Below are positions 43,136 through 44,040 of a stretch of DNA of 64,000 nt, in pieces. Below the pieces are notes generated by a model that ran no database searches, was not told the origin of the DNA, and worked only from the letters and a program-made list of their open reading frames with translations. Each line of letters starts with the position of its first letter. Positions within the stretch are counted from its first letter, which is position 1. The position numbers and the translations under genes are program-made. This DNA is from Eledone cirrhosa (taxonomy: Eukaryota), in the NCBI GenBank assembly GCA_964016885.1, contig OZ024760.1, positions 22,506,001 to 22,570,000 of the forward strand, given 5' to 3'.

Positions 43136-43696
43136 TATTATTATTACTATATATATATATATATATATTATATTTATTATATTTATTTATACACACACAC
43201 ACACATGCACATTGAGATGTTGGCGTATCTCAACATCCTCCTTCTCACCATCATCAACATCATCACCATCATAAATATGAGCCATAATATTGTTTCTACT
43301 TTAGGCACAAGGCCAGCAATTACCCAGTGCATTACTGCATAATATTGTAATGCTATATGAGTTATTGGTTGTCTTCCATCTCTCTATAATACAATTCACC
43401 GCCATTATCACGCCTGATTGCCTTCACAGACGAACTTCAATGCTCCACTGGCTATTGTACTTGTTATATATATATATATATATATATACACACGCACACA
43501 CACACACATACACACACATATGTATGTGTATGTATAATGCTATGCTTGAAGCGAAATCTTATTTTTTTTCTATTATAAATTGAGCCAACTTATGCAGCTT
43601 CATATGCAAATGAGATTAATCACCTCATTTACACAGATGAGAAAACTATATATTCTCGACTGTTTTCAAGTCCAGCAGATGCAAGAGATGGGAGGG

Positions 43697-43740
43697 ACCG
43701 TCCTGAAGAGGGCCAGTCAAGCCTGAAATGCATAGACGGT
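43697..43740 (+). ncRNA. Intact minimal type-I hammerhead ribozyme
   Basis: ACCGTC-CTGAAGA-GGGC-CAGTCAA-GCCT-GAA-ATGCAT-A-GACGGT. Stem I is 6 bp, stem II is 4 bp (one G-U), stem III is palindromic. Predicted cleavage after A43734. Confidence 0.88.
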
Positions 43741-44040
43741 TGTCCCCCTTGCCCCAGTGTTTGCATAGCTACTGCTTACTAAAACCGTATTTCTTTAGAA
43801 ATATGAAATTTCTATACATATTTGTATAAAACTATGCTTGAAGCGAAATCTTATATCTTTTCTATATATATGTATATTTATATATATATATGTATGTATA
43901 TGTGTATGTATATGTGTCTGTATATATGTACGTGTATATATATATATATATGTACATGTATATATAGAATTTTCTACAAATCTACGGACGGTCGGTCTTC
44001 CACCTACTGTTAATGGTAATGAATACACACATATATATAC

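Follow-up and report, generated by a model that had tools for sequence, protein, structure and literature searches.

A likely non-LTR retrozyme monomer with a Penelope-like terminal redundancy in Eledone cirrhosa

The unit and its hammerhead motif

The window analysed here is a 64,000-nucleotide (64-kb) stretch of the Eledone cirrhosa genome assembly, on contig OZ024760.1. At 43531-43865 it contains a short non-coding unit that is bounded by direct repeats and carries a hammerhead ribozyme motif within it. The unit had been picked out in an initial annotation made from the letters of the sequence, and its coordinates and letters agree on re-reading. Its features are listed below, where X1 to X7 are the sets of contigs and reads taken up in the following section.

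43465..43530, no strand: left flank, a (TA)n/(CA)n/(TG)n microsatellite and the inferred insertion target
43531..43573, plus strand: 5' terminal direct repeat, a predicted copy of a Penelope-type "tail"; its left edge merges into TG/TA microsatellite
43604..43611, plus strand: octamer ATGCAAAT, a possible snRNA-type promoter element (weak lead)
43620..43636, plus strand: stretch that opens with TCACC and bears a loose resemblance to a proximal sequence element; the simple repeats of the window are rich in TCACC
43689..43756, plus strand: predicted extension of helix I in a different register, with a bulge starting UG; present in the MFE structure and absent from the centroid of the 76-nt region
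43696..43741, plus strand: type-I hammerhead motif (CUGAAGA, GAAA and an AUA triplet), from descriptor, pairing model and family variation
43728..43733, plus strand: palindrome ATGCAT, helix III; 1-2 bp possible in the monomer, 6 bp in the predicted dimer
43734..43734, plus strand: predicted cleavage residue A43734, with the cut 3' of the residue, from hammerhead numbering
43752..43753, plus strand: site without the ~31 nt carried by other copies; joints or loose ends at 43752 in X1, X2, X3, X5, X6 and X7
43823..43865, plus strand: 3' terminal repeat copy, 89-131 nt behind the predicted cut; passes into (AT)n
43866..43965, no strand: right flank, a (TA)n/(TG)n microsatellite

The direct repeat had been described as two copies lying 292 bp apart, and this spacing is borne out. 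The exact stretch is 23 nt long (43540-43562 and 43832-43854) and is nested in a 43-nt repeat of 91% identity (43531-43573 and 43823-43865). The chance recurrence of the terminal repeat, estimated from composition, is about 5e-9; short repeats spaced 150-500 bp apart are common in the 64-kb window, owing to other arrays. The unit was also correctly held to lack an open reading frame (ORF), since stops occur in all six frames, and the GC content of its 292 nt is 36%. At the positions listed for run X1, the 5' repeat is covered by 45-76 contigs and thus belongs to the repeat family, while the summed depth of the same run over 43843-43870 falls from 42,667 to 12,511 and then to 1,928. Both flanks of the unit are AT-rich or microsatellite DNA, as expected of a Penelope-mobilised element, which is a weak sign in a window largely filled with microsatellites, and no target-site duplication is readable within them. 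No second ribozyme of this family was found in the 64 kb. With one unit and one ribozyme, the locus therefore lacks the tandem arrangement of an active retrozyme and is classed as a solo monomer.

Helix I of the motif joins 43697-43702 to 43735-43740 through 6 bp, along with a G.U pair between 43696 and 43741. The core spans 43703-43709, helix II (43710-43713 with 43721-43724) has 4 bp and a 7-nt loop, and GAAA occupies 43725-43728. Both strands of the 64 kb together contain 19 CTGANGA cores, and of these only the one at 43696-43741 matches the type-I descriptor in the sense of intact helices, a decayed hammerhead at 44676-44729 having been missed by the descriptor and then spotted by eye. Across 200 block-wise dinucleotide shuffles, the mean number of matches per window was 0.01 for a loose descriptor and 0 for a strict one, and the hammerhead motif is far beyond chance expectation. 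In the whole unit, whether linear or circular, the predicted pair probabilities of helices I and II are 0.92-0.99.

The initial annotation had called the core perfect. This is right for its single-stranded positions and wrong for pair 10.1-11.1, which is a G.U and not the usual G-C. Likewise, the 6 bp proposed for stem I stand, whereas the proposed GGGA/TCCC extension does not, its tested pairs having probabilities of at most 0.08 in a register that is not favoured. The self-complementary stem III is indeed the palindrome at 43728-43733, with a predicted self-duplex energy of -4.7 kcal/mol. The 292-nt unit is stabler than its shuffles (z -2.56, 3/200), and the 76-nt ribozyme region is no stabler than its own (z -0.21, 79/200). 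No Rfam family exceeds its threshold in the 64-kb window, and none of the 67 matches at E<=10 within 43300-44100 is a hammerhead. The ribozyme pattern has no matches in the metagenome, viral and prokaryote collections. A metagenome locus (L001) found by its terminal-repeat pattern shares a 21-nt match and no other likeness with the unit, and was rejected as chance.

Hammerheads with a short helix III are explained by a dimer model of cleavage (PMC4209133), and dimer cleavage through ATGCAT is predicted here following that established work. Monomers of coral and mussel retrozymes were cleaved without a partner, according to the available text of PMC7229834, and eight of nine predicted Xenopus dimers gave no in vitro cleavage in the accessible part of a recent preprint (bioRxiv 10.64898/2026.07.22.740005). 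Of four triplets compared in a viroid hammerhead, AUA is given as the slowest (PMC1636495, available text). The non-G-C pair 10.1-11.1 and the AUA triplet are features that may lower the activity of the motif.

Between the 5' repeat and the ribozyme, the octamer at 43604-43611 matches what we take to be an snRNA-type promoter motif, and the stretch at 43620-43636 loosely matches what is presumably the consensus of the proximal sequence element. The window shows no enrichment of the octamer, with 4 occurrences seen and 5.8 expected. It recalls the snRNA-type promoter reported for newt satellite 2 in the available text of PMC2220036, as a weak motif match only.

The repeat family, its variation and its joins

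Contigs that match the unit at 80% or more number 3,276 of 16,285,364 in X1, 3,474 of 17,142,217 in X2 and 3,133 of 16,517,967 in X3, these being three runs of one sample, and 40 of 762,587 in X4, for which the kind of data is not on record and which is not taken as a sign of expression. The listed runs with the unit include no RNA data, which is silent on its expression. Reduced-representation raw DNA reads from three further samples also match the unit (1,595, 1,249 and 1,248 reads). A single-copy unit, which the initial annotation had named as fatal to its own proposal, is thus not what is seen, with 3,133-3,474 distinct contigs in each of X1-X3. Summed contig depth gives no exact copy number and so was not used for one; we infer that hundreds to thousands of copies are present in the genome.

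The window copy differs from more than 80% of the X1 depth at 16 or more places, or at least 4.8% of the unit, among the 40 of 106 rows listed. The 292 nt earlier taken as the length of the family unit are the length of this one copy. Other copies are about 31 nt longer after 43752, so the family unit is about 323 nt. The window copy is aged and slightly damaged. Differences from the family majority at 43638, 43756 and 43804 were considered as marks of RNA editing and rejected, as they resemble ordinary CpG decay by eye.

The ribozyme itself varies in a restricted manner. Among the rows listed (40/106 and 40/59), the only varying core position is 43707 (A, C, T or G), which is N7, the free position of the hammerhead core. 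Most copies have G>A at 43710, where an A-U pair replaces the G.U of the window copy at 10.1-11.1. Positions 43712 (G>A) and 43722 (C>T), which pair in helix II, change with frequencies of 0.66/0.45 in X5, 0.74/0.60 in X6 and 0.77/0.73 in X7, scored site by site in forward reads that stem from few loci; these two positions likely form a compensatory pair. Judged on the rows listed, the ribozyme looks maintained in the family.

The search for tandem multimers suggested at the outset yielded one X2 contig (depth 16) that jumps back by 292, from 43830 to 43539. On the shorter side of the joint, this contig still has 49 letters, which exceeds what the terminal repeat could supply by itself. The joint is present in no X1 contig and in none of the raw reads of X5 and X6 among the rows listed. 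In X4, the depth bins fit only with a piece of depth 132.8 that ends at 43834, exactly 292-1 beyond 43543, and record 9, of equal depth (132.8), resumes at 43543 from its 44th letter. This depth arithmetic implies a head-to-tail join, tandem or circular, which is not itself among the listed joints, three of which were dropped at masked letters. In the mapping that covered X3 and X4, 43511-43542 and 43852-43885 were masked, so ends are unreadable there. Judging from these sequences, head-to-tail joins exist in the family, one of them carried by a contig and the other inferred. In the deepest X4 variant, 9 nt of helix II are missing (43716), yet this variant appears to cross the head-to-tail join.

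The edges of the terminal repeat recur outside the window copy. Reads with unrelated flank, 146 in X5 and 124 in X6 and probably from few loci, exit the repeat at 43822, its 5' edge. At 43828, 19 contigs of X1 and 25 of X3 end and pass into (TA)n. These could be tail-less ends, or false matches of AT-rich DNA, as other AT-rich stretches of the window match the unit up to this same position at about 78%. In X5 and X6, many reads at 43822 and 43869 consist of the ~47-nt terminal repeat alone between unrelated flanks, the left of which resembles what we take to be a Helitron 3' end. These repeat-only reads may represent a solo tail at one locus.

Affinities of the unit and origin of the copy

Metazoan non-LTR retrozymes are described from coral, Mytilus and axolotl (Cervera and de la Pena 2020; PMC7229834, available text), and the window unit is like them in being a non-coding unit within 170-400 nt, with GC below 45%, a type-I hammerhead and a high copy number. 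The helices by which membership is defined in PMC4209133, namely a helix I of about 6 bp, a helix II of about 4 bp and a short palindromic helix III, are all found here. Unlike the tandems of metazoan retrozymes, the window locus has one unit plus 43 nt of redundancy. It is instead like the vertebrate solo monomers of bioRxiv 10.64898/2026.07.22.740005, dispersed single units that are read there as offspring unable to transpose. In the accessible part of that preprint (Li, Clavereau, Pollet, bioRxiv 10.64898/2026.07.22.740005), animal retrozymes are derived from Penelope pseudo-LTRs (pLTRs), and solo monomers are common and evenly spread. Within the same part molluscs are unsampled and the word "tail" is absent, the pLTR link being drawn from phylogeny and co-occurrence and not from insertion ends. 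The contrast between retrozyme and pLTR that the initial annotation had relied upon is therefore weaker than it assumed.

Newt satellite 2 is also alike, with a unit of ~330 nt and a hammerhead whose helix III is very short and which cleaves there as a dimer (PMC7229834, PMC6155905, PMC2220036, each in its available text), although it is tandem and the window unit single. Plant LTR retrozymes differ more widely, having a type-III hammerhead in each LTR along with a PBS, a PPT and a 4-bp target-site duplication, whereas the motif here is of type I, single and outside the terminal repeats. By its testable features, the unit belongs with the metazoan non-LTR retrozymes as a solo monomer, and not with active tandems or autonomous Penelope-like elements (PLEs). 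Retrozyme monomers and their link to Penelope are already in print, and the kind of element is known from mussels, corals and amphibians. Retrozymes are thus known in a mollusc, the mussel, with PLEs proposed as helpers, and cephalopods are unnamed (0 matches) in the main text of the same source (PMC7229834). No report of cephalopod retrozymes or of retrozyme tails was found in the literature searched, which mostly excluded subscription papers, Repbase and key supplements.

The ends of the unit recall Penelope. PLEs often end in a 30-40-bp tail (PMC8557442, available text), and in the Poseidon element of the anole this tail sits between two internal start sites of the reverse transcriptase (RT). 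In that element the ribozyme cuts at 26 and initiation maps to 111-118 nt within the ORF, which places it 85-92 nt behind the cut (PMC11167929, available text). The terminal repeat described here is 37-43 nt long and starts 89 nt behind the predicted cut, a distance of ~120 in copies without the deletion; by this comparison the terminal redundancy fits a Penelope tail in size and position. The arrangement is like that of the Anolis Poseidon pLTR and tail, with a hammerhead and, ~90 nt on, a 30-40-bp terminal extension (PMC11167929), and the AT-rich or microsatellite target with no readable target-site duplication is like those of Penelope-like elements, so far as the available texts go (PMC11167929, PMC8557442, PMC3846280). 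Several PLE clades characteristically insert into microsatellites (PMC8557442, available text). The anole Poseidon endonuclease prefers AT-rich DNA, and its main in vitro substrate is uncut RNA (PMC11167929, available text). Ribozyme mutants of the anole element insert unimpaired in vitro, according to the same text (PMC11167929), and cleavage and circles may therefore be dispensable.

The unit departs from Poseidon in lacking an RT-GIY-YIG ORF and in having tail sequence at both ends. It departs as well from the minimal PLE hammerhead, which has an extra base between core and helix II, a G10.1-C11.1 pair and no or a tiny helix III (PMC4209133 supplement); here the helices are the canonical 6 and 4 bp, helix II follows the core directly and a U precedes GAAA. 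None of the 127 complex stop-to-stop segments of 50 aa or more in the window matches the RT or GIY-YIG families of Pfam, and the mark of an autonomous Penelope-like element, an RT plus GIY-YIG ORF beside a pLTR, is absent from the window. The possibility that the unit is always attached to the end of a Penelope ORF had been raised earlier; no RT or GIY-YIG fragment was found in the window. No shared ORF-like loose end occurs among the rows listed, beyond which there are 651 and 295 further loose-end rows, and no partner Penelope element was identified in the 64-kb window.

The best explanation of the locus is a dispersed, aged, single-unit copy that probably belongs to an animal non-LTR retrozyme family and was placed in a TA microsatellite by a PLE enzyme. 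We give this reading a probability of roughly 0.7. The retrozyme interpretation put forward at first is supported in part, by the multi-copy, non-coding nature of the unit, its metazoan type-I hammerhead and the head-to-tail joins of the family.

The unit could instead be a relic that an autonomous Penelope-like element left behind passively: a lone pseudo-LTR and its tail, produced by 5' truncation or recombination, with no independent existence as RNA. Such relics have precedents, as the pLTRs of fly, rotifer, shrimp and mosquito carry hammerheads with a small-palindrome helix III and are mostly single and dispersed (PMC4209133), solo pLTRs are described in rotifers (PMC3846280, available text) and coleoids are rich in Penelope LINEs (PMC8967140). 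This origin is nevertheless improbable, since the 5' end carries tail sequence as well, joined to the interior (76 X1 contigs at 43565) where an autonomous ORF would be expected, and since the motif has neither the extra base before helix II nor the G-C closing pair of the PLE consensus (PMC4209133 supplement). Additionally, no ORF fragment lies near the unit, and the family has head-to-tail joins. These same joins speak for a retrozyme whose 43-nt redundancy was left when recombination or deletion in the DNA collapsed a dimer or a longer array, as do the ~31 nt already missing inside the window copy and the unstable microsatellite at its flanks. A collapse, however, preserves the outer insertion ends, whose cause would remain to be explained; other reads exit the repeat at the identical 5' edge, 43822, and both the size and the place of the redundancy fit a Penelope tail. 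We therefore consider a collapsed array a little less probable again than a pLTR relic. Two near-identical repeats around one insert would also result if a ~250-nt ribozyme-bearing fragment had been inserted by a LINE, the direct repeat being a long target-site duplication of host DNA. The repeat has summed depths above 30,000 and is linked to the interior in dozens of contigs; it is thus part of the element and not of the insertion site, which makes this last account highly improbable.

For a retrozyme monomer inserted by a PLE enzyme, the preferred reading, the proposed course of events would begin with transcription of a tandem source locus. Two ribozymes would pair through ATGCAT and cut, giving monomers of ~323 nt that are possibly circularised. 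A Penelope RT-endonuclease would then nick AT-rich DNA and prime there. Reverse transcription would begin at an internal site of the RNA, the 3' edge of the tail, which in the window copy lies 131 nt behind the cut. Copying would cross an uncut or re-ligated cleavage site and halt one unit on, at the 5' edge of the tail, to leave one unit with a redundancy of ~37-43 nt, and the inserted copy would subsequently decay. If the copy came through RNA, the ribozyme lying whole in mid-copy implies that the cleavage site of the template was uncut or re-ligated. As to whether that template was a circle or an uncut linear multimer, the chances are about even. The insertion of more than unit length proposed by the initial annotation is thus retained, with its circle as just one of two possible templates. 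Having one ribozyme, the locus would release no unit-length RNA by itself, is unlikely to form a circle on its own and is probably a dead end. The genomic return of animal retrozymes is proposed, not shown, in the available texts of PMC7229834 and PMC8557442.

A bolder and rather doubtful version takes the redundancy for a Penelope tail in the literal sense, borne by a ribozyme RNA with no ORF: the enzyme would have run once round a ~323-nt circle, from one tail edge to the other and across the re-ligated cut site. If true, this would prove from sequence that animal retrozymes are moved by Penelope elements by way of circles, and the cephalopod family would be one driven by an internal snRNA-type promoter, like newt satellite 2. 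The insertion of a unit plus tail points to the likely enzyme along with its start and stop sites; the window copy, being old, deleted and single, is itself a poor test case.

Other elements in the window

A second, unrelated and decayed type-I hammerhead lies on the minus strand at 44676-44729, in an element of about 44640-44868. Its core and 4-bp helix II are intact, 9 of 11 pairs remain in helix I and the predicted cut is at 44687. The motif sits in a unit of ~230 bp that has a (TA)n run on either side and is single-copy in the window. Another repeat between (TA)n runs, at 42600-42920, has no CTGANGA core and contains a very stable hairpin of -72 kcal/mol over 120 nt (42711-42830); its relatives occur at three or more other loci in the window (8407-8655, 19886-19939 and 37627-37759). 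A possible hammerhead-type end remnant was noticed by eye at 44090-44245, where GAAA is followed by a palindrome, GTA and AATAAA and the core is not intact, and kin of this stretch form an inverted pair near 4.2-4.4 kb (4199-4412).

The adjoining stretch at 44241-44419 is a SINE-like repeat of ~180 bp, with 39 BLAST rows across the window, among them a 194-bp tandem run at 55.6-56.7 kb. On the minus strand, 6406-7266 is an open frame of 287 codons with a weak DUF6451 match (E 0.00014, under the cut-off), which we take to be perhaps a LINE fragment. Short frames at 9914-10081, 53979-54149 and 58081-58383 each have a single C2H2 zinc-finger-like match just under the Pfam cut-off.
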